Shown in pieces: positions 1 to 64,000 of a stretch of 64,000 nt of DNA. This stretch comes from Tubiluchus corallicola. Taxonomy: Eukaryota; Animalia; Priapulida. A program made the position numbers and the translations under genes. The stretch spans positions 124,001 through 188,000 of the forward strand of contig JAQGDQ010000364.1 of the NCBI GenBank assembly GCA_030141605.1. Direction: 5' to 3'. Below the pieces are notes generated by a model. It made no database searches, was not told the DNA's origin, and saw only the letters and a list, made by a program, of their open reading frames with translations. Position 1 is the first letter of the stretch, and the number at the start of each line of letters is the position of its first letter.

Positions 1-546
1 ATTGAAGCTAACGACTTCCTAGAATAACCCAGTAAATCATCAGTTTTTTGGTAAAACAACACTGCTTTCAGTTGAGCTTGCGTAGACAGGGGGTGACTGG
101 AGTCTGAATGTTTTGAATAGCATTTGTCACAGATAATTGCTATTACTTTTCTTTGCTTGACTAGCCCATTAGATTTCCTGCAGAATTGGCAACTATTTCT
201 GGTGTTTAGCATAGCACTTGACTGACTCGCGTCGTTGGTATCTGGCATATCGACCCAAGGAAAGCTAGGTGCCAAACTTTTCTATTCATTAGCTAATTAG
301 CCGGAATAGTTGTAATGATCTTGTTTTGCTAGTCCTAGGCACAGCACGTTAACTGAGATGACCAAATTTCCCGACAAAACTCAACGTGTGGCCAAAAGAA
401 ATTTTGTTTTTTACAGAAAACCTGATAACGCCTTGCTGTAATTTGATTATAGATGGCACTATTGTTTTCCTGGTAACTTTACAATTCTGCTAATACCAAT
501 TTATACTAAGCATATGCAGGAAAAAACACACAAATCTGCAATCTTG

Positions 547-712
547 TGAGACACGAAAATAACGTGACCGTAACAATCTTTGCACACAACCATTCAACAT
601 CTAAAAATAGAAACAACGCATGTAGGAATTTGAGACGCGAAAATAACGTGACCGCAACAATCATTGCACACAACCACTCAACATCTAAAAATAGAAACAA
701 CGCATGTAGAAA
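547..712. repeat. 84-bp tandem duplication (2 units) at the breakpoint of the truncated defensin duplicate
   Basis: TGAGAC.CGAAAATAACGTGACC...ACATCTAAAAATAGAAACAACGCATGTAG occurs at 547 and 631, period 84. It explains the repetitive ORFs 506..751 and 546..764. Confidence 0.85.
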
Positions 713-2076
713 TGGTAAAGCTTTGATCCATTGGAAGATGAACATTATCAAGTACCTTTTGTAACTAGTTAGGCAAATTTGTTAGGTCTTTAAAATTAAC
801 TGCAAGAAGTACGAAACTACTGCAGGCTACCTCGGCTCAAAGTGTAAGGCCTAATGTTTCACATAGATCTCTCTGAATCATGCGAAGTCTCGATTGATTT
901 TGAAAAGCTGCAATAAATTTTAGTTTTAGTAAACCGCCTGCAGAACTTGGTGAGAGCGTGGTGAATTCTAACAATCAGCAACATTTAAGTTGAGCTCACA
1001 AAAAACGATATTTTCTGCTTTTCGTTTTTGATTGTTGGAACTTATATAGGAAACAATCAGCTACGAAAAGCAGGAACTATCATTTTTATTTTAGTGAGCT
1101 CAACTTAAATGTTCCTGATTGTTAGAATTCACCACGCTCTCACCAAGTTCTGCAGGCGGTTTTCTAAAGCTAAAATTTAATGCAGTTTTTGATAATCAGA
1201 AGAACACAGGCTTATAGGTAACGTTTTAGTTTAGTTGTAAATGATAACAAGCATACCAGGGTTCTGTGAGAATGTTTTGGTTAAAATAAAATCACTCCAT
1301 TGGAATATTAAGAGAGTACTTTGTCTGGGATATTAGGCCTTACGTGATGAGCTGAGAGTCTGCATTTTTAAACTTTAAAAATGAACTTTTTTGAACTCAC
1401 CCTCATCGGCCACATCTTCAGCATGGATAGCAGCAACTACAGCCATGACAACAATCAGTGCATTGATTATGCCGGTCTTCATTGAAAATCCAAATGTTGC
1501 AATAATTCTGTAAAATATGACGAGGTTTTCATTCATTCACAGCGCAGCCTGGTAGTTACATTTCAATTTTTGCAGAATTCCGTAAATTACGGAACATAAT
1601 CGTGAAAATTTGAATTCTTGTGATGCAATACAAACTACAATAATGACTGCAGCAACCACAATCTCAGTGACAGTGACAATGACTATGACAACATTATAAC
1701 AACAACAATTACAAGTACCGATATAAATAGTTATGATGAAAAAATTAAATTGTTTTATCTTATGCGTCCAAGTGATCTTTGTAAGCTCGTGTCTTGTTCC
1801 TAGAAACTTCTACACAACTCAGATTTTAGAAGGCTTTTTATATCTATAGATGACCTCTTTTTAGAAGGAAATGATACCAAGAAGTTTCATGATCTTTAAA
1901 ACAATGTCGAGTGCGCTGTTAAATATTTTGTAAACTGTTTATAAAATGTTTAAACAATTCGTTAATAAACATGAACAAGCGGAAGCACTTGAAGAGTCAT
2001 TGAATTTTGTAAACAAAATTAGGAGCGCCTAAACATGCAACTAACACCTTTCAGGACAGGCCGACTACGAGTTTTG
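681..2076 (-). pseudogene. Truncated duplicate of the defensin-like gene: promoter, signal-peptide exon 1401-1482 and intron, with no mature-peptide exons in the window
   Basis: Direct, highly similar copy of 4805-6203. Exon 1482-1401 reads MKTGIINALIVVMAVVAAIHAEDVADE followed by a GTGAGT donor. Similarity stops 4 nt into exon 2 (681). The 5'UTR donor reads ATAAGA rather than GTAAGG (1763). Confidence 0.7.
905..1190. mobile_element. Foldback/MITE-like element with ~90-bp inverted arms in the intron of the duplicate
   Basis: AAACCGCCTGCAGAACTTGGTGAGAGCGTGGTGAATTCTAACAATCAG...AAGTTGAGCTCAC (~905-998) is reverse-complemented at ~1094-1190. The same element is at 5031-5310. Confidence 0.75.
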
Positions 2077-2117
2077 GCACTTGTTTGTTAAGCATTTCTG
2101 TATTTTGGATGCGGGTT

Positions 2118-2412: not shown

Positions 2413-4340
2413 AAATGTGAATGTTTTTAAATGTTTTTAAACAAGTATAATTATCCTGCCGCCGAAGGCAGTAGTTGCTTCTTATAACTAAACTGTGCAG
2501 AAATTAAGATATAATTCATTTGTCTGATGCATCATTCGTGACAGAGATGTAGAAAAGTGATGCAAAGATAAACAGCTATACTACTTGCTTAAATAGAAAT
2601 ACTTTTCTGCTAAGTTTAGACCATTTCACATCAGTAATTTTTATTGTGCACAAAAACATATTTTGTGTCTTTATATTAATTTAACTGAACCAGTTTTCAA
2701 GTTAAACCAGCTTTTAATAATTTCACTAGATGGCAGTACCAGTATTGTCGTAATAAGATGATGTATTGTGCTCAATGTGGTGACATCTATTATCAAGAAA
2801 CAAGAAATATTATAAGCTGCAAATCTTTTTAAAACTCCGATGTCTAAGTTCACCTTGTAGCTCACCGTTTTTATGTTTCCTCAATATTAAGACAATATGC
2901 TGTAACAAAGGCTGTTACGATGGCAGTTTTTGGACTGTTAGTTGTATATGGTTTAAAAAAATTACTTGTTTTGTTGTCTGTGCAGTTTGTTGTTATTTTT
3001 GTTTATTTCTTTTAATGAAGAAACTTGAGCATACTGCAAAATGACCTGCTGAAAATCAAGAAGAAAAGGAAGTTTTAGTTTATCAAACGATACTTTCCAT
3101 AGAAAGTTATATTACTTGACATTACACTTCCTGTTTGAAAGGCTTGTGTAACTGGAAGAGAAAATTCTTAGTATTTTAAAATGTTCGTGCCACCTGATCG
3201 CACATCACTGCTTCACCATCTCAGTGTGCATCACTGGCTCACAAAAAATACTTTATTGATGAATGTTCCAAGAAAAACGACATTTCATTTGCTGACAGCA
3301 AAATTGTTCTAGTTACTAAAAGACTCCTTATTAGTATTAAGTATATTCATATTACCAATGTCACTGATGCTAAACCATTCAAACGTCGTAATAAGAAGAG
3401 GAAGACCATTGTGACAAATTTGACAAGGATTGACCTTGAAATTTAGCAGGGTATTATAACTGCATCTACATCCATCCAGAAATAAGCAGGAAATTTGTTG
3501 CTTAAGTGTCAACAGTTATTGGTATTTTAACAGTGACGTATGTAATACGATGCATAATTTAACCTACACCAATTTCATATGAAACAAAACAATTTTTCTA
3601 AATTTGAAAAATAATTTTATTATTTTAGAATCACAGCAATCTGCCAACAGGTATAAAATTTTGGGAATAAATTTAATGAGAGATCATTAAACGTTCAATA
3701 AATCAGTTCATAATCTTTATTTGAAATAAATTGTCTGAGAAACAGGAACTTGCAATAACGTTAATAATGGCTGCACAAGCAGCTTTTTATTTAAAATTTT
3801 ATCACACTCATAAGAAGACATTAAAAAATAATAATCATGGTAAATCATAGGCAGGTGTCTAACAAAGACTATCAAGTATACTTTTGTGTAATTTTACCAA
3901 AACACAGTCCTCGTAACTACAGTCTTCATAAGCAGACGATGTGCACATTACCTTTTTGCCATACCGAGTGGTTTAAAAATAGTTTAGTAACATATGCACT
4001 TTTTAATTATACCAATATAAGCTTGTTACCACAGTATAAATAGTGACACCGAGATTTTAACAAATTTTAATAAGGTTAATGTTAAAGAAAATTGTTGCTT
4101 TTTAATGTAATGTAATTTACCATTTTAATAAGTTTATTTATATTATAACTATTAATGTTATTATCATTATTATTACAATTACTATTGTCGTCATCATTAT
4201 TATAATAAGATAAAAATGTCAAGAACAATGATTCAGGTATCAAATCACAGTAGGTTAATTTCAAATCATCAAATCAATTCTTCTATTTAAAATATTCCAC
4301 CAGATATGACAACGATTTTACTAGTTGTTCATCAAGTCTT

Positions 4341-4438
4341 CTAACATCGTGCACAATAGCAATCATATCTGCAGTCACAAAATCCAGTGAAGTAACCTCT
4401 GCGTCTACATTCAGAGTGGCAGCGCGGGGTGTGTCCAA
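4341..4438 (-). CDS. Defensin-like gene, coding exon 3 (most of the mature peptide and the stop)
   Basis: ttttttcatttgatttag|TT GGA CAC...TGT TAG = (V)GHTPRCHSECRRRGYFTGFCDCRYDCYCARC*. Confidence 0.85.
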
Positions 4439-5603
4439 CTAAATCAAATGAAAAAAATCACTTATCATTTAGTAATAATAATAATCGTTTTTTTCAAACA
4501 CTGTTACCAAAATTCAATTCAGCACGTTAAACTTTGGTAACATTTCAAATCTTAATGAACACTACATGCATGGATAAGCATCAGTTTAACTTGTTAATGT
4601 TGTCAAAACAAATCAGTTTTATGATTTTATAATCATAAAAAGTATAATTGTTAACTCCTTGAAGTTTTAAAAGGCTTTATACCGAAAGAAGTCTAATTTA
4701 ATACCATCTATTTTGTGAACATCTAGTTTACGTACCTCTACAATAATAGCTGCTGCGTTCCTGTGGAGGGTCGATGTTCTCAAATGCGAATTGCTTTTCG
4801 GTCACATCTAAAAATAGAAACAACGCATGTAGAAATTGTACAGCTTTGACCGATTGGAAGATGAACATTATCAAGTACCTTTTGTTACTAGTTAGGCAAA
4901 TTTGTTAGGTCTTTTAAATTAACTGCAAGAATTATGAAACTACTGCAGGCTGCCTCGGCACAAAGTGTAAGGCCTAATGTTTCACATAGATCTCTCTGAA
5001 TCATACGAAGTCTCGATTGATTTTGAATAGCCGCAATATATTTTAGTTTTAGAAAACCGTCTGCAGAACTTGGTGAGAGCGTGGTGAATTTTAACAATCA
5101 GTAACATTTAAGTTGAGCTCACAAAAAACGATATTTTCTGATTTTCGTTTTTGATTGTTGGAACTTATATAGGAAACAATCTGTTGCGAAAAGCAGGAAC
5201 TACCATTTTTATTTTAGTGAGCTGAACTTAAATTTTACTAATTGTTAGAATTCACCACGCTCTCACCATGTTCTGCAGGCGGTTTACTAAAGCTAAAATT
5301 TAATGCAGTTTTTGATAATCAGAAGAACACAGGTTTATAGGTAACGTTTTATTTCAGTTGAAAATAATAACAAGCATACCAGGGTTCTGTGAGAGCATTT
5401 TTGTTAAAATAAAATCACTCCATTGGCACAATAAGAGTACTTTGTCTGGGATGTTAGGCCTTACGTGATGAGCTGAGAGTCTGCATTTTTAAATTTTAAA
5501 AATGAACTTTTTTGAACTCACCCACATCGTCCACATCTTCAGCATGGATAGCAGCAACTACAGCCATGGCAACAAGCAGTGCAATGATTATGCCGGTCTT
5601 CAT
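4341..5603 (-). CDS. Prepro-defensin-like cysteine-rich secreted peptide (CS-alpha-beta type, 8 Cys), 83 aa; join(5603..5522,4807..4736,4438..4341)
   Basis: Three exons joined by phase-1 GT-AG introns give MKTGIIIALLVAMAVVAAIHA-EDVDDVDVTEKQFAFENIDPPQER-SSYYCRVGHTPRCHSECRRRGYFTGFCDCRYDCYCARC*. It has a hydrophobic signal peptide, acidic propiece, and CxxxC, GxC and CxC motifs. 82+72+98=252 nt, in frame. Confidence 0.85.
4736..4807 (-). CDS. Defensin-like gene, coding exon 2 (propiece and start of mature peptide)
   Basis: tttctatttttag|AT GTG...AGA G|gtacgt = (D)VTEKQFAFENIDPPQERSSYYCR. Confidence 0.8.
5031..5310. mobile_element. Foldback/MITE-like element in the first coding intron of the defensin-like gene
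   Basis: ~90-bp inverted arms at ~5031-5121 and ~5217-5310; paralogous to 905-1190. Confidence 0.7.
5522..5603 (-). CDS. Defensin-like gene, coding exon 1 (signal peptide)
   Basis: acaATG AAG ACC...GAT GTG G|gtgagt = MKTGIIIALLVAMAVVAAIHAEDVDDV. An upstream acceptor ttttgcag lies at 5629-5631. Confidence 0.85.
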
Positions 5604-5884
5604 TGTAAATCCAAATGTTGCAATAATTCTGCAAAATATGACGAGGTTTTCATTCACTCACAACACAGCCTGGTAGTTACATTTCAATTTTTACAGAATT
5701 TTTTCTGTAAATTACGGAACATAATCGTGAAAATTTGACTTCCAGTGATGCAATACAAACTACAACAATGACTGCAGCAACCACAACCTCAGTGACAGTG
5801 ACAATGACTATGACAAGATTAAAACAACAACAATTACAAGTACCGATGTAAATAGTTATGAAAAAATTAAATTGTTTTACCTTA

Positions 5885-5964
5885 CGCGTCCAAGTGATCT
5901 TTGTAAGCTCGTGTCTTGTTCCTAGAAACTTCTACACAACTCTGATTTTAGAAGGCTTTTTATA
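5885..5964 (-). promoter_or_regulatory. Putative TATA box and non-coding first exon of the defensin-like gene
   Basis: TATAAAAAG at 5964-5956 on the minus strand, then a GC|GTAAGG donor at 5885 that can pair with the acceptor at 5629. Confidence 0.55.
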
Positions 5965-7983
5965 TCTATAGATGACCTCTTTTTAGAAGGAAATGACACC
6001 ATAAAGTTTCATGAGCTTTAAAACAATGTCGAGTGCGCGGTTAAATATTTTGTAAACTGTTTATAAAATGTTTAAACAATTCGTTAATAAACATGAACAA
6101 GCGTAAACACTTGAAGAGCCATTTGAATTTTGTAAACAAAATTAGGAGCAGCCTAAACATGCAGATAAGAACACCTTTTAGGACAGGCCGACTACGAGTT
6201 TTGACTTGTAACTTCGTATGAATGATTTTTGTAATACCAACGGTGGTATTTTCACGTTTAGACGTTTCAATACTTTTAGACTTTTAGTTCATTTTATGCA
6301 GTTTGGCACCCCGAAGTTGGATCCGGCATTCAACGCTGGCATCGCATAAACTTTGTGCCTGTGGTAGAACCGGCACTTAGATAAGTGCCATGGCTAATCC
6401 TATACGATATGATAGCGAACTAGCAAAGATGCTTTACCCATATTTGGCAGGATGAGTCCCTCCTACAGAAGGCAAATAACGCAGCGTTGCTTAACTTTAG
6501 ATGCTAAATGCATACTGTGTGAACACACCACTGTAGTTCTCTCGCCTCTAGTTTTGAGTGAACGAGTTTTTTGTAACTTAGAAAAATTGGCTCCAATTTC
6601 GTCGTATCTGATTGAATCTTTCGTATCAAACTGTTGCTTCTTAATAAACGTACAACTGCTCACTTATCGTAATCTAATTTGAACAGCAGATTTCATGGTG
6701 CTGCTGGTGTTGTAATACCTTTATTGATTTTTCCTGCAATTTTATAAATTTTCACTCTTAAGCAATTGTTACTGTGGTCCTTTATATTGTGGTGAGCTCA
6801 TGATCGTGGTTTAGTGTTGTGTTGGTTACGAAAGGTAATGATTGAAGTCAACCAAAACGCTTTGAACTGGTGGTTAATTTCTACTGTTTGTTTGTTCCAA
6901 AGTTAAAGCAAACTTTTCAGTCCAGAACTCTGATGGTTAATATCGTTTTTACTGTGCCAAGCCCAAAACATAAGACTGTAATAATGAATTGTTTCCAGTG
7001 TGCCAAGCATATGTCAAAACTCAGATACAGATTTAGAAGTTTGCCTCCATTACAAGCATAGTATCAGTGTTAGTCTGTGAGAAAGAGAGTGCCACTCTGT
7101 CTGTTCTGCTCCCTGCCTCAACTCTCTTTTTATAAATAACCACTTCGCCTCACCAAACCAGAAAATAAAAACTAGATTTTTTCCGGCTAGTGAACATCCC
7201 AGTGCCTGGCAGGCCTGTCCCATTGAGGTATGCATATAAGATTGTAATTTAAACCATAAAACTGAGATATACAAAATAGTAGGGAAAATCAATAACCCCA
7301 TAATAAAAATATTTCATATATTGATGTTTGGAATTCAGTCAAACATGAGCAACCTATTATTATGCTATGCGTATGGGTAGATTCTTTGAATGCCGCAAAA
7401 TATTCTTAAATAGCATATAACAACAATAACAACAGCAACAACAACAACAATAATAACAACAACAACAACAACAATATTAATAAAAATAATAATAGTAATA
7501 AAAGAGCAAGAAAACGGTGTAGTACCGTTATTCGAAAAAAACCGCCACTCATTCCCTGAATTACGTTGTTTTTTAATTGGCTTTTTGCTTATTTTTTTAT
7601 CGTCATAATGTACCGAATTGTAGTTTTGTCGTGTACATTTGTCTGTGTTCAACTCTTACAATAAAATATGTTATCAAATGTCCTCAAATCTGGTTTGTTC
7701 ACTAAATTTAGTAACAAGTATAATAAGTACATTACGGATATGTGAAATGTTCCTAGGCCCACCTCTGTTTTGATAATATATTTGTATTAAACATAATTAT
7801 GCTTTATACACAAGGTGCATCAACCCGACCCTAACAGCTGAATTACATGACAAATTTAGAAAACACCTGCAGCTATAAGGTGACTATTGACGTCACAGTA
7901 AACAAACTACAGTAGTTTTGTTTATTTATTTCGATTAGTAATTTCCTGTTTGCATTTTATTTCAATTTACAAAGTGACAACAG

Positions 7984-8600
7984 GCTATTACACTCGCTGG
8001 TGTATGTCGGGCCATTACACTTGCTGGTGCATGTAGGGCCATTACACTTGCTGGTGCATGTAGGGCCATTACACTTGCTGGTGTATGTAGGGCCATTACA
8101 CTTGCTGGTGCATGTAGGGCCATTACACTTGCTGGTGTATGTAGGGCCATTACACTCGCTGGTGTATGTAGGGCCATTACACTTGCTGGTGCATGTAGGG
8201 CCATTACACTTGCTGGTGCATGTAGGGCCATTACACTTGCTGGTGCATGTAGGGCCACTACATTTTCTGGTGCATGTAGGGCCATTACACTTGCTGGTGC
8301 ATGTAGGGCTATTACACTTGCTGGTGCATGTAGGGTCATTACACTTGCTGGTGCATGTAGGGCCATTACACTTGCTGGTGCATGTAGGGCCATTACATTT
8401 TCTGGTGCATGTAGGGCCATTACACTTGCTGGTGCATGTAGGGCTATTACACTTGCTGGTGCATGTAGGGTCATTACACTTGCTGGTGCATGTAGGGCCA
8501 TTACACTTGCTGGTGCATGTAGGGCCATTACCTTTGCTGGTGCATGTAGGGTCATTACACTTGCTGGTGCATGTAGGGCCATTACACTTGCTGGTGCATG
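7984..8600. repeat. 27-bp minisatellite (~23 units), consensus GCATGTAGGGCCATTACACTTGCTGGT
   Basis: Direct tandem array. It generates the repetitive ORFs HAPASVMAL and HVGPLHLLV. Confidence 0.95.
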
Positions 8601-11452: not shown

Positions 11453-13006
11453 CTAGTTATGAATGACACCCTTGAAATTTTCCTTTTTCATCACAACGAC
11501 CTTGTACTGTACCCGCTGATCAGGAGGTTGCCTTTTTGGTTTTTGCAAAACTTTCTCTGGTTTTGTGACAGGAGCTCCGGGACACGAATGAAGAGTATGC
11601 TTGCTTAAACAGACTTGTCGCTTAAAGTACTTTAAGCAGGCACTACACTGAAAAGGATGCTCATTGCTATGAGTGATCATATGCAGTTTAAGTTCGTATT
11701 TATTAAATGCAGAATGACTACAGATGTTACACTGAACCTTGCGTTCATTTAGATGCATTCTTCGGTAATGAATTGCACGGGCACTGGCCGTAACAAAAAC
11801 AGCTGAACAAGCTTTACACTTGTAAGGTTTCTCTCCTGTGTGAATTCTCATGTGATCTTTTAAACAAGAACTTTTAACAAATGTCTTATTGCAGATTGAG
11901 CATCTAGGTTTTGGATTCCAAGATAGTCTGCACGTTTTGGTCAATTTATCACGATTTTCTATTCCGCATGACATTGTGTGCTTTTTAAAATAATCAGGAC
12001 TTTTGAATCTTTTCTGGCACTTATCACACTTAAATGGTCTTTCAGTTTGATGAACGAGCATGTGTTTCCTCAATGTTTGTTTCAAAGAGAAAGTTTTATC
12101 ACACTTATCGCACTTAAATGGCTTTTCTTCACAATGACTACATTGCACATGCATACGCAGAGCTCCTTTTTCAGCAAATCGTTTTTCGCACATATAACAC
12201 TTAAATGGCTTCTGCCCAGTGTGTATTCTAAGATGTACCACAAGCTGGTTTCTTGCACAAAACTTTTTGTGACACACTATACATTCGTATGGCAGAGAAC
12301 CTTCATGTTTTTGCATGTGCCGTCTCCAAGATGTTTGATATCTCATGCGCTTGTGACACACCCAACATTCGTAAGGCAACTTCTTGTCATGTATTCTTGC
12401 ATGATTATTGAGTGACTGAGATGTAGTTACTGTTTTGTGACAAACCTGGCAGGTGTAATTTTTCTTTTTTGTGTGCTGTCGCTCTGTGTGCCTTAACATG
12501 TTCCTCTCTGAACTGAATTCTTTCTCGCAGAATTGGCAAGGAAAGTTCACCAACTTTTCAGCAACCTGAACTTCACGTCCTATTAGATTTTCCATCGTTT
12601 GTCTGAAATCCAGAGCCATTTTGGTTGTACATGCTGAGTCATTGCCAAAACTTGAGCCATATGCTGTTGCACTGTAATCATGTCCAGACAAGGTGGCAAT
12701 ATCAAAACTCTCGGCACCTTGCTCTAATAAATGACGAGCAGCAGCAGGATCAGTAACATCATCATCACCATCATCAGTGCATTCTTGATCATCTGCATCA
12801 TACACAGACATGCTATCGCTAACAGAAAATGACAAAGAACTATTCTCCAGTGTACCAAATTCTAGTTCGTTAGCAGAAGGTTGATTCTCTTCACATGTGA
12901 TGATAACGCAATGATTTTTCATCGCGTGTTGAAGAAAATCTTTTTCTGTCTCCAAACAGTCGGAACAAGCAGTACATTTATAATAGACAAGTCTCTCGCT
13001 ATTCAT
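11453..13006 (-). CDS. Multi-C2H2 zinc-finger protein (about 12 fingers); first in-frame ATG at 13006
   Basis: Uninterrupted ORF with one N-terminal finger, an acidic linker, and 11 tandem C2H2/C2HC fingers with TGEKP-like linkers (TGQKPFKC, TGEKPYKC). Confidence 0.92.
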   Translation of the reverse strand: MNSERLVYYKCTACSDCLETEKDFLQHAMKNHCVIITCEENQPSANELEFGTLENSSLSFSVSDSMSVYDADDQECTDDGDDDVTDPAAARHLLEQGAESFDIATLSGHDYSATAYGSSFGNDSACTTKMALDFRQTMENLIGREVQVAEKLVNFPCQFCEKEFSSERNMLRHTERQHTKKKNYTCQVCHKTVTTSQSLNNHARIHDKKLPYECWVCHKRMRYQTSWRRHMQKHEGSLPYECIVCHKKFCARNQLVVHLRIHTGQKPFKCYMCEKRFAEKGALRMHVQCSHCEEKPFKCDKCDKTFSLKQTLRKHMLVHQTERPFKCDKCQKRFKSPDYFKKHTMSCGIENRDKLTKTCRLSWNPKPRCSICNKTFVKSSCLKDHMRIHTGEKPYKCKACSAVFVTASARAIHYRRMHLNERKVQCNICSHSAFNKYELKLHMITHSNEHPFQCSACLKYFKRQVCLSKHTLHSCPGAPVTKPEKVLQKPKRQPPDQRVQYKVVVMKKENFKGVIHN

Positions 13007-13217
13007 TTTTCTCGGAATTTTTGTACTCAACTGTAGCTCTGAAACAACAAATGTGCACAATAATTAGGTGAAAAGAAAAAGCTAATTGACTCCCAGAACC
13101 CGTTTACACTGTTATGCATGATTGAAGCTGCCTCAAGCCAGAATAATGCTCAAAGCAAGACCTAGTCAATGCAGATGGTTGTGACTGGACATGAATCTTA
13201 TTATAAAATTATTTTAA

Positions 13218-33852: not shown

Positions 33853-35082
33853 TCAACCAGCTACCAAAAGCCTGATAAGCACTGAAACAACGTGAACATT
33901 CAAGCTGTTGCCCAGCAATTTATAACAATCTCTGCTTGACATCTGAGTGGGAAAGTTGAACGAACTTGGAAAGTACATGATATTGGCAATCTCCTTTGGC
34001 GTAAAGTACCTCAAACTCGCGTCGACCACATCTGCACACTTGTTGGATTTCAATTCGGTTATTTTATTGGCTTGCACACCGTTTGTTAACAGTACTGATC
34101 CAGTTCCTTCTGCGTATCTGCCGTAAGCTTTCGTAAAACAGCACGAGCGCGTGGATTGCGGATGAATGACATCCATTACCTTGAGAAATCTCTGTAATGT
34201 TTGCTTTGGGACAAGAAATTCTTCTGTGGGTGGGTCGACCTCCAAATAATGGCTCAACTCTAGCATATCTTTCGTTATACAGTTGCACAGAGTTTTATTA
34301 TTGACTAGAAATTCACAGAACATTACATATGAACTCCTTGGCTGTTCACTGTGCCCAGACTTTGCAGATTCACTCTCTAATTTCGCAAAAGGTAACTCAT
34401 GGGAATTCACTTCCGTACATTCCGTTTCCATATCCACAACTAAGTTATCATGAGCACTGTTGAAATGTTTAGTAGAACACTCAGTTTTGGTGGAATTAAA
34501 CACTGAATATTGCAGCATGATGCTACAGGTGTAACAGTGAGAAATTGGTGTAGGCAACTTCAGTTCACAGTTTTGATGCTTAGCGATCAAATAATATCGC
34601 AACCGCGAGTTTGGTATTCCGAACTGTACAGGAGACAGCAGAAATTCCTTGTACACATATTTGCAGTCTTTTAAGCAATGGATAAGTTTGCTTCGTGCGG
34701 ACGATGACTCGAACCCAACGACGTTTTCGAGAAGTATGTATTTGGGTGGCATAGGCCAATTGGGTAAGACATCCAGCAAGGCAAGGAGCGACTTGCAGCG
34801 TGGGTCAGCCGTATCTTTCTCACAACCTTGCCTCGTAAATGGCTGACACGGAGGGCTCATTAAAATTGCGTTCACGTTCATGGCTGCGAGTTCCGACACA
34901 GTTAATGACTCGATGTTTCTTTGAATCAAATTTGTGGATGGATAATTGTGCCTGTAAACCTCATTCGCCTTCTCATTGATATCAACGGCAGCGGCGACGG
35001 TAAATGAAATGCCGCTTCTGTCCAAAGCTGCATGCATTCCACCAATTCCACTATATAGTTCTAAGACATTCAATTGCTCCAT
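33853..35082 (-). CDS. TRDMT1: tRNA (cytosine-38-C5)-methyltransferase DNMT2/TRDMT1, 409 aa, single coding exon
   Basis: Motif I LELYSGIGG, motif IV SPPCQPFTR, motif VI ENV, motif VIII NSRLRYY, DNMT2-specific CFTKAY, motif X LLGNSLN. A 5'UTR acceptor ttttgcag lies at ~35154. Confidence 0.95.
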   Translation of the reverse strand: MEQLNVLELYSGIGGMHAALDRSGISFTVAAAVDINEKANEVYRHNYPSTNLIQRNIESLTVSELAAMNVNAILMSPPCQPFTRQGCEKDTADPRCKSLLALLDVLPNWPMPPKYILLENVVGFESSSARSKLIHCLKDCKYVYKEFLLSPVQFGIPNSRLRYYLIAKHQNCELKLPTPISHCYTCSIMLQYSVFNSTKTECSTKHFNSAHDNLVVDMETECTEVNSHELPFAKLESESAKSGHSEQPRSSYVMFCEFLVNNKTLCNCITKDMLELSHYLEVDPPTEEFLVPKQTLQRFLKVMDVIHPQSTRSCCFTKAYGRYAEGTGSVLLTNGVQANKITELKSNKCADVVDASLRYFTPKEIANIMYFPSSFNFPTQMSSRDCYKLLGNSLNVHVVSVLIRLLVAG

Positions 35083-36154
35083 TGTATATATAACTATCTA
35101 GTGATTTCTCAAGAATCTTTTTGATATCTGTATGATTAGAATGCACTGGTGAACTGCAAAAATAAAATAATCACAAAAAAGTAGTTATGAGTCCACTGAG
35201 ATTACTAATCAGACCGGGAACAATGCACGCATCACCAGCAAAATAATTAAACACCTAATTAATTTAAAAATTGGGTATTGATTTATGCCCACCAGTCAAG
35301 CTACTCTGTACTCACTTTAATTCTGCAAGTGTTGCGAACCACGTGAAAAAATTACAATTGTGATGACGTGTAAAAGCTGTAACTCTATACAAGTGCAACA
35401 CGAAAAAATCAGTTTTTTACGATCATTGCCTGCAGCCCAATATGGATTAACTACTAGTACTACAAAAGTTTGCAGGTAAGGCAAAGTGTTCTAGAAAGGG
35501 AAGAGGAAGAAAATTTAGAGGAGTTATATTTGACACGACACTAAAACCAAGTCGACATATACCAGAAGTGACAAAGAACGCTAACCAAAAGTGTCGCCTG
35601 TCGGTCTGATACACAGAAGCTATACATACCAGAAAAAAAGATGCTTTCCAAGCTAAACAAATCGATTGTAAGACCTCTGTTGGAAAACGCAAATGTAAAC
35701 ATCAGTGAAAAGCCACCTCGTTTTTGTTCAAGTGAAATTCTTCTATCTTTAATGTGATATAATGTATCGATAGAATAAGGGTTAGACCTTAAAGAAGAGT
35801 CCGAAGATAAAAATATTAGGTATTAAAACAATTATAACAAATAACAGCAGCCCACCGGACTAGTAGACCCACGCTTTGCCCTGTTGCGCATGAGAAACGT
35901 CTGTCTAGTACAAAATACGTGCACAACGCGACGCCACAAGCACTTTAGGGGCTGCGGTTTCTCCATCATTTCTCAAGTTTGGTTGTGTTTTTGCAGTGTC
36001 TCCGAAGAAATAAGGATTTTCCCCCAAGTATGGGTTATTTGTTGTGATTTATGGATGAGACTTTTGCAGGGGATCCAAGGAGTGTTCTGGTGCTACGAAT
36101 GAAAATGCTTCTTTAGCAAAAACTGGAGAAAACGACGGGAGGTTGCCGTGCAAA
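35083..36154. promoter_or_regulatory. Probable bidirectional promoter region between TRDMT1 (-) and NLK (+)
   Basis: Start codons are ~1.07 kb apart and divergent; a CpG-containing stretch at ~35850-35960 includes TGCGCATG. Confidence 0.5.
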
Positions 36155-62238
<26,084 letters not shown>

Positions 62239-64000
62239 GTAAAGTGATTAATTAAATCTCACGTATGGCTCGCATGATAGTTTTATGCATACATTAGATC
62301 ATCACGACGGTATGAAGATGTTTTGAAAAGTGCAAATGTACATTGAAATTAACAAAGTTTAAAGCACAAGTAAACCCTCCTCAACATAAAGCTTAAAAAA
62401 TTCGTCTTGAAATTTTATATCACTTAAATGCTGTCTTATTGCATGCAGAGCTTGCATTAGCAGTAACGCTGTATAAAACTTGAACACTTAAACTCCTGTG
62501 ATAGCCGTTAGATGCAGCCATTTTGAGGATAAGTCATTTGGAATAAGTTTAGATAACGTTGTTCCGCAAAGCTTGAAAAATAATCAGAGAATCTGTAGCG
62601 CCCTCTTTGGTAACTAAGGAAAAGTTTAAGTTGTCGGTAACATCAACAATGTGTTTCTGTTGAGTGAGTGGTTCACATCTTGATGGTGAGGCAGTGCCGT
62701 TTTATCAGATCACATGAATATTTTAAATTAACAATTTTCCTTTCTAACTTACACAAGCCTTTCAAACAGGTAAGAGTAATGAAAACTAATAGCAAAGTAA
62801 CTTTGTGTGGGCAGTCCTGGGCGCATATATTAAATTTTCCTTTAAGCTTCAGGGCCCTTATTCCATACCTACATTAAACATGTGCAAGAATTTATGCTTC
62901 TGCAATTGTGGTCTATGCATTCTAAAATAAATTTAGGAAATGTCGCCCAAAAGTGCTTTCAAACCAAAAAAAGAAATTGATAGCTGTGGTTTCGTTCACA
63001 CCCCTTCAAGGAAACTAGCAGTTGAATCCCATGTCTTATTTTTTGGTGAGAAGGGGCTAACTTCGTGGCCTCATTTTTAGGCGTCTGTGTCCTCATCGAG
63101 GCCGTTGTAAAGATGGTGGGGCCATTTGTACCTTCTGTATCCTATTGTAGCTGTTTGTGAAGAACCCCATAACCAGTTCAAGCCTCCTTGCCCCAAAAAT
63201 GAAGGTCTACCGCTAACTGTTCATCCCCTGTTGACATCATATGCTCAGGACCTGTGAATCCGCTGTCACCATCTTTCAGATTTGTATTCGCTAGATCGCT
63301 TTGTATCTACCTAAGTATGACTGACTTCCTTTTAATTATATTGAATAGAACCTATCATTAGGAATCCAGCCAAAAGTGCCAAGTTTACTGGAACTTATTA
63401 TAAACTGTTACTCGTTCATACAGTATTAGCCTCCATTTGTGATTTTTTCCTAGTTGGTTTATAGCACAACTCAGTCCAAATGCTTGACTGTTTATTCTTT
63501 TTTAAAAGTTTAGCTTGGATGCTATTCTCCACAAGACGAGATGATTTAATTCATGATCTACCCTTGAAATACAACTTTACTCTATATACATACCGTAATT
63601 GCTGTATAATTTAAAGTTACGATATTACTGTTATTAGGTAATCACTAATTTGTGTAATTGGCTCGACAGCATGACATTAATTTTTCACGCTGCGGCATTG
63701 TCAATTTGTTACTGTAATAATACAGCTGGTGCCATCTATTGAGAAATAATTGAACGTGGTGACTATAATTTCTATATATTTGCTCTCCTTAAAGGACAAG
63801 AAAAGGGGTACCTGAAGTACGTTTCAGAAAAATCGTCTTAAAAAATTATTCTACTCTACAGCAATTATATGCATATATCGTACCCGCGTTGAAAGAAATT
63901 TTTGTTTCCATTTTAAATCTTTCTCAATATTGTTCCGACGGCACCATTACATGACGTCACAGCGTAAAACGTTAATCAGGGGACGAAAAGGCAATGTTAA

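Follow-up and report, generated by a model that had tools for sequence, protein, structure and literature searches.

The 64-kb stretch of Tubiluchus corallicola DNA analyzed here (the window) carries on its minus strand a gene for a defensin-like precursor, split over three coding exons, together with a truncated tandem duplicate of the same gene (Table 1). The coding parts of the exons, 82 nt (5603-5522), 72 nt (4807-4736) and 98 nt (4438-4341) in length, join to 252 nt that encode 83 aa plus a stop codon, with no internal stop and no frameshift. Both coding introns are GT-AG and phase 1, and GC content is 46-49% in the exons vs. 26-34% in the introns. We additionally ranked splice sites across 4300-5990 with a simple scheme of our own, whose weights are approximate: the two coding donors rank first and second of 109 GT sites, the acceptors at 5629, 4808 and 4439 all fall within the top 4 of 89 AG sites, and the two candidate donors of an upstream non-coding exon rank sixth and eighth among the same GT sites. 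An earlier note on this DNA had proposed that the three exons splice in phase to an 83-aa precursor, and this gene model is confirmed at the level of the genomic sequence. That note had also placed a TATA box and a non-coding exon upstream; the TATA box sequence is present at 5964-5957, while the non-coding exon is plausible but less well supported than the coding exons. Searching with two patterns of our own, we found no kappa-B-like site in the 1.85 kb upstream of the gene.

Table 1 Features of the defensin-like gene and its truncated duplicate, in window positions
Feature	Positions	Strand	Basis
TATA box TATAAAAA	5957..5964	-	sequence; putative function
Probable non-coding first exon, start approximate; donor GT 5885, alternative 5880	5886..5935	-	donor ranks 6 and 8 of 109
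Coding exon 1: 25-nt part of the 5'UTR, ATG at 5603, 21-aa signal-like peptide, start of acidic propiece	5522..5628	-	splicing ranks, translation
Intron, 714 nt, phase 1; holds MITE-like inverted repeat 5018-5321	4808..5521	-	sequence
Coding exon 2, 72 nt, phase 1-1: remainder of propiece, PQER, first 6 mature residues including C1	4736..4807	-	sequence; third-position bias in data set X1
Intron of 297 nt, phase 1, separating C1 from C2 within the mature domain	4439..4735	-	sequence; consensus base at donor +4 in data set X1
Coding exon 3: C2 to C8 and stop codon	4341..4438	-	AF2 fold; ARD1/heliomicin matches
Candidate AATAAA polyadenylation signal, about 200 nt past the stop	4133..4138	-	sequence; putative use
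Truncated tandem duplicate: promoter, non-coding exon, exon 1 (1482-1401), intron 1	681..2084	-	93.4% identity over 1413 nt

The spliced translation falls into three parts: a signal-like segment of 21 aa whose core is hydrophobic (Kyte-Doolittle mean of 3.2 across residues 5-18), a 24-aa propiece with 9 Asp or Glu residues, and a 38-aa putative mature peptide with 7 Arg, 3 acidic and 7 aromatic residues, no Lys and a net charge of about +4. Our recount of these parts agrees with the composition first reported. The propiece ends in PQER, which fits the definition of a processing quadruplet (PQM) given in PMC6832493. Eight cysteines punctuate the mature part at spacings of 7, 3, 9, 1, 3, 1 and 2, in agreement with the pattern C-x7-C-x3-C-x9-C-x-C-x3-C-x-C-x2-C read previously, and they include the CxxxC, the CxC and the third cysteine pair, with GxC, by which PMC5116183 defines CS-alpha-beta peptides from sequence. 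The combined CxxxC..GxC..CxC motif is present once in the six frames of the window; of 200 dinucleotide-shuffled windows, 2 contain it.

In the ten-cysteine scheme of Tarr (PMC5116183), the peptide carries C2, C3, C4, C6, C7, C8, C9 and C10, and so keeps reference C7 and C10 without either usual partner (reference C1 and C5). Compared by eye, its spacing matches none of the 533 rows of Tarr's reference sheet (PMC5116183 supplement 1), and it occurs in none of the 30 mytilins tabulated in PMC7168163 (Table 1). The array had been called unusual, a description borne out by its lack of a counterpart in the reference table, and its extra cysteine had been said to follow the GxC rather than precede it as in mussel and oyster defensins; we likewise find the 9 residues after CxxxC free of cysteine and C5 in the hairpin turn. 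The further suggestion of an undescribed family stands as far as the array is new against the reference table and falls short as to the family itself, represented here by one intact gene, one truncated copy and no homologue found.

We also compared the gene with a second data set, X1, which is of unspecified kind and may share its source with the window. A 322-nt piece of an X1 contig spans exon 2 with 11 differences, 9 of which are listed. All five exon-2 differences fall on third codon positions (P=0.003 by chance), four being silent and one changing a residue, and among all coding changes listed 6 of 8 are at third positions (P=0.02). Two of the three exon-1 differences listed replace one hydrophobic residue with another, although these come from a deeper contig that possibly merges copies and from a table listing 40 of 59 rows. 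At the donor of the second intron, the X1 contig carries the consensus base at +4 (place 4732). X1 leaves exon 3 uncovered at 85% or 80% likeness, a hole that is uninformative, and no exon-exon joints were observed. Another data set, X2, yielded no contigs. Divergence in X1 is 5/72 in exon 2 vs. 6/250 in the flanking introns (P=0.07), with the exon changes mostly silent; old alleles or gene conversion could account for the higher value in the exon.

The duplicate lies 4.1 kb downstream of the intact gene and ends 4 nt into exon 2, with no match for its exons 2 and 3 in window positions 1-680, and the window as a whole holds one intact and one truncated copy. All five changed codons in the exon 1 of the duplicate alter the residue, one of them bringing an Asn into the hydrophobic core, and the non-coding exon has lost both of its candidate donors. 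Judged on these changes, it is likely a dead partial copy or pseudogene fragment, best read as a sign of local gene turnover; we rejected the alternative of a second, intact paralogue. Intron 1 of both copies contains a MITE-like element whose terminal inverted arms, 110 nt long, stand 84 nt apart (5018-5321 and 895-1198). At the breakpoint of the duplicate lie two tandem 84-nt units (547-713), each repeating the exon-2 acceptor, and read-through would give an 86-aa product with 4 cysteines. Just past the upstream end of the duplicated block is a 21-nt minisatellite of about 14 copies (2123-2412), and a 27-nt minisatellite of about 23 copies at 7983-8600 is open in four frames, including a cysteine-rich repeat on the minus strand, and is probably non-coding.

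Elsewhere in the window, we observed a DNMT2/TRDMT1 tRNA methyltransferase in one uninterrupted 414-aa frame, apparently without coding introns (33853-35097, minus strand), a multi-exon RPL23a gene (about 27110-25480, minus strand), a C2H2 zinc-finger protein of 536 aa in a single frame, bearing about 10 fingers (11453-13063, minus strand) and an exon of a protein kinase domain (61921-62244, plus strand). Priapulus caudatus is top-scoring among the 120 DNMT2 matches listed. In trees of thin taxon sampling that include no kinorhynch or loriciferan, DNMT2 groups with Priapulus caudatus at 99/97 with 53% identity (19 rows, using 18 of 120 matches), and RPL23a (about 27110-25636) groups with Priapulus at 96/88 (26 rows spanning molluscs, an annelid, a nemertean, arthropods and a nematode, using 25 of 120 matches). 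By these two genes, the host would probably be a priapulid other than P. caudatus. A search of the 64-kb window against Rfam returned no matches.

To place the peptide structurally, we relied on exon 3, for which AF2 predicts a helix at residues 5-13 and strands at 18-21 and 27-30 (pLDDT 88.7), in a single-sequence model of this exon alone (32 aa) that lacks C1. Foldseek places lucifensin, ETD151, drosomycin and cobatoxin in the top rows for this model, and no match reaches E<=0.001; VIA gives a Z of 4.0 at best and shows plant defensins, venom peptides and drosomycin as tied. Drosomycin (1myn), third in Foldseek and sixth in VIA, aligns over the whole exon-3 model. Of 13 sequence matches in the PDB, the best 4 are chains of ARD1/heliomicin (E 0.0006-0.003). 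Venom peptides of scorpions and robber flies appear in both the sequence and the fold matches, and by sequence they score below the antifungal defensins. Our queries were single exons rather than the full spliced precursor or the whole mature peptide, which lowers sensitivity: exon 3 has no Pfam family and no match at E<=0.001 among 1.84 billion representatives, a search in which a 32-aa query is blind to distant relatives, and the exon-2 open frame yielded no candidate among 90% clusters. Given the Pfam and representative searches, the peptide is without a close annotated relative. In the Atlas, the nearest clusters are scorpion short toxins at 0.81-0.82, under the 0.9 lead level, and excluding scorpion families leaves no usable match.

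Exon 3 is thus predicted to fold as CS-alpha-beta, with fold matches that are statistically weak. The motif, the modeled helix and two strands, and the defensins among the top fold and sequence matches together agree with the initial assignment of a defensin-like CS-alpha-beta precursor, and by its sequence the peptide is a variant of this well-known superfamily with an array absent from the reference table. Cysteine pattern alone cannot separate toxin from antimicrobial (Tarr 2016, PMC5116183).

The eight cysteines leave several pairings to be weighed. In reference numbering, C10 pairs in known families with C1 (drosomycin, plants) or with C5 (molluscs, nematodes), and in macins C7 pairs with C1 (PMC5116183). 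A crude model in torsion space, with backbone and pseudo side chains and restraints that we assumed, allows the core disulfides C1-C4, C2-C6 and C3-C7. C5 lies in the beta-turn of the AF2 model and C8 at the opposite end of the hairpin; across the 15 crude core models listed (of 16), they are 14.6-23.1 A apart. We then freed the tail and scored each alternative from 17 starts, a procedure that cannot rank pairings firmly: the best scores were 5.7 for the core only, 6.1 for a mollusc-type control bond, 10.0 for the core with C5-C8, and 5.0 (next best 8.7) for C1-C5 with C4-C8. Forcing C5-C8 brought the pair to 4.6-4.7 A under moderate strain, and we accordingly rejected the idea that this bond is geometrically impossible.

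The fourth disulfide proposed earlier, C5-C8, is therefore strained but possible in this crude model, given its score relative to the core alone; its placement across opposite hairpin ends leaves the bond short of established, and we regard it as a tentative option. Two other arrangements seem possible without being probable, each about as likely as C5-C8 or slightly more so: C5 and C8 may be bonded between chains or unpaired, inter-chain bonds having been proposed for Perna mytilins, or they may take part in a re-paired C1-C5/C4-C8 scheme, the mollusc/nematode order C1-C5, C2-C6, C3-C7, C4-C8.

Taken together, these observations make it fairly probable that the precursor gives rise to a secreted priapulid innate-immune peptide with a CS-alpha-beta defensin fold that would kill microbes, most likely Gram-positive bacteria. 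The signal peptide would be removed on secretion, the acidic propiece would mask the cationic domain until cleaved, and a protease may cut after the Arg of PQER, resembling cleavage at a processing quadruplet, to set the putative mature start. The core bonds C1-C4, C2-C6 and C3-C7 would then form, and a cluster of Arg at the end of the helix, with nearby aromatic residues, could bind anionic lipids of the microbial envelope. We lean toward a Gram-positive target because Gram-positive activity arose in drosomycins that have no wrapper bond (PMC4999892), and because the peptide lacks hydrophobic loops of the type seen in ETD151, which uses an L1/L3 patch on fungal glucosylceramide (PMC12455092).

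Antifungal activity is the main rival to this antibacterial reading. Here the peptide would act like drosomycin or heliomicin on fungal membrane sphingolipids, as a true relative of the drosomycin-type peptides of arthropods, nematodes and tardigrades, which we consider unlikely. ARD1 and heliomicin are its best sequence matches, drosomycin aligns with the whole exon-3 model, and the drosomycin-type genes of nematodes carry a single phase-1 intron (PMC9751787). From drosomycin's second cysteine on, moreover, the spacing 7-3-9-5-1-2 is that of the priapulid peptide with the loop cysteine set aside; however, a clam defensin and a tardigrade defensin are listed with the same six-cysteine spacing of 7-3-9-5-1, so this run is non-diagnostic. 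Drosomycin's first cysteine and first strand are missing, and the loops that would bind glucosylceramide are shorter and polar in the priapulid peptide.

It is quite improbable that the product is instead a CS-alpha-beta ion-channel modulator or another secreted defense or prey peptide. The Atlas proximity to scorpion short toxins, below the lead level, gives weak support to the toxin-like character suggested at the outset, and venom peptides recur among the sequence and fold matches, yet they score lower than the antifungal defensins. Pore-blocking scorpion K-channel toxins depend on a lysine, carried in the first strand of the short toxins, whereas the mature priapulid peptide has none. To our knowledge, no venom system is known in priapulids. 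The processing site points the other way, PQM-type sites being known mainly from spider venom precursors (PMC6832493). We regard it as very improbable that this copy of the gene died recently or was mis-assembled, or that its exons are joined otherwise, e.g., by skipping exon 2 to a 59-aa form with 7 cysteines: the splicing is predicted from genomic sequence, the neighboring copy is decaying and the frame survives skipping because exon 2 is symmetric (phase 1-1), but neither a stop nor a frameshift interrupts the reading frame, the changes in exon 2 are biased to silent sites in the proposed frame, its splice sites are top-ranked, and an even number of cysteines requires it.

In the literature searched, outside which most subscription papers fall, we found no description of a priapulid defensin or other antimicrobial effector. 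Priapulus has Dorsal and Relish homologues (PMC7056985), and the word "defensin" does not occur in the portions of that paper on priapulid immune signaling that were available. Because priapulids are an early branch of Ecdysozoa, their defensins are informative on the origin of insect, nematode and drosomycin-type defensins. With three exons of less than 100 coding nt each, no Pfam match and no database relative, similar genes may sit unannotated in related genomes. The CS-alpha-beta superfamily tolerates many cysteine arrays, which limits the weight of one more.

A more far-reaching reading, which we find rather doubtful, takes the product as the first CS-alpha-beta peptide from Scalidophora, built on a drosomycin-lineage scaffold that lost its N-terminal cysteine and re-used the orphaned last cysteine with a new hairpin cysteine. 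If true, the disulfide topology would be new to the superfamily, with either a novel bond within the chain or a dimer linked covalently head to tail, and would be encoded by a gene whose intron interrupts the fold. Drosomycin-type peptides, reported from Arthropoda, Nematoda and Tardigrada (PMC9751787) as a grouping that is disputed (PMC10506718), would extend to a fourth ecdysozoan phylum, and the hypothesis of transfer from plants to ecdysozoans would become testable at the base of Ecdysozoa.

Among named families, the positions of the cysteines rule out mussel defensin, mytilin, macin and drosomycin proper as the class of this peptide. It compares most closely with drosomycin and heliomicin, more so than with the defensins of mussels or oysters. 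The lepidopteran antifungals heliomicin and ARD1 (PDB 1i2u, 1ozz) have in common with it the helix motif, the x3 and x9 spacings and the CS-alpha-beta fold, and the common residues sit in the helix and the following loop; they differ in having six cysteines (10-3-9-7-1) rather than eight, and their hydrophobic L1 and L3 loops are not kept, being shorter in the priapulid peptide with a polar hairpin loop. Drosomycin additionally has its C-terminal cysteine in the same place. The priapulid precursor is free of cysteine before residue 50, however, and in the absence of the N-terminal cysteine of drosomycin and plant defensins (reference C1) it has no C1-C8 wrapper bond; it further differs from drosomycin in its extra hairpin-turn cysteine, acidic propiece and two coding introns, the Drosophila drosomycin gene being intronless (PMC9751787).

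Eight cysteines ending in CxCxxC are also found in the mytilins and in the mollusc and nematode defensins such as MGD-1, myticin and ASABF, but there the extra cysteine (reference C5) stands 4-6 residues past CxxxC, before the GxC, and mytilins carry their acidic extension at the C-terminus rather than the N-terminus. Macins have a reference C1-C7 bond, a long n-loop and a hairpin spacing of 6-8, whereas the priapulid peptide has no reference C1 and a hairpin spacing of 1-3. Among the arrays listed, the closest precedent for a pair of neighboring cysteines just before CxC is Hypsibius dujardini defensin 4 (Tarr 2016, Fig. S1), which, compared by spacing alone, has nine cysteines (8-7-3-10-2-2-1-7), one of them N-terminal, and a longer tail. 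Finally, arthropod and mollusc defensin genes described in PMC6435467 keep the mature peptide unsplit on one exon, whereas the priapulid gene divides it between C1 and C2 with the 297-nt phase-1 intron at 4735-4439, as the earlier note had recognized.
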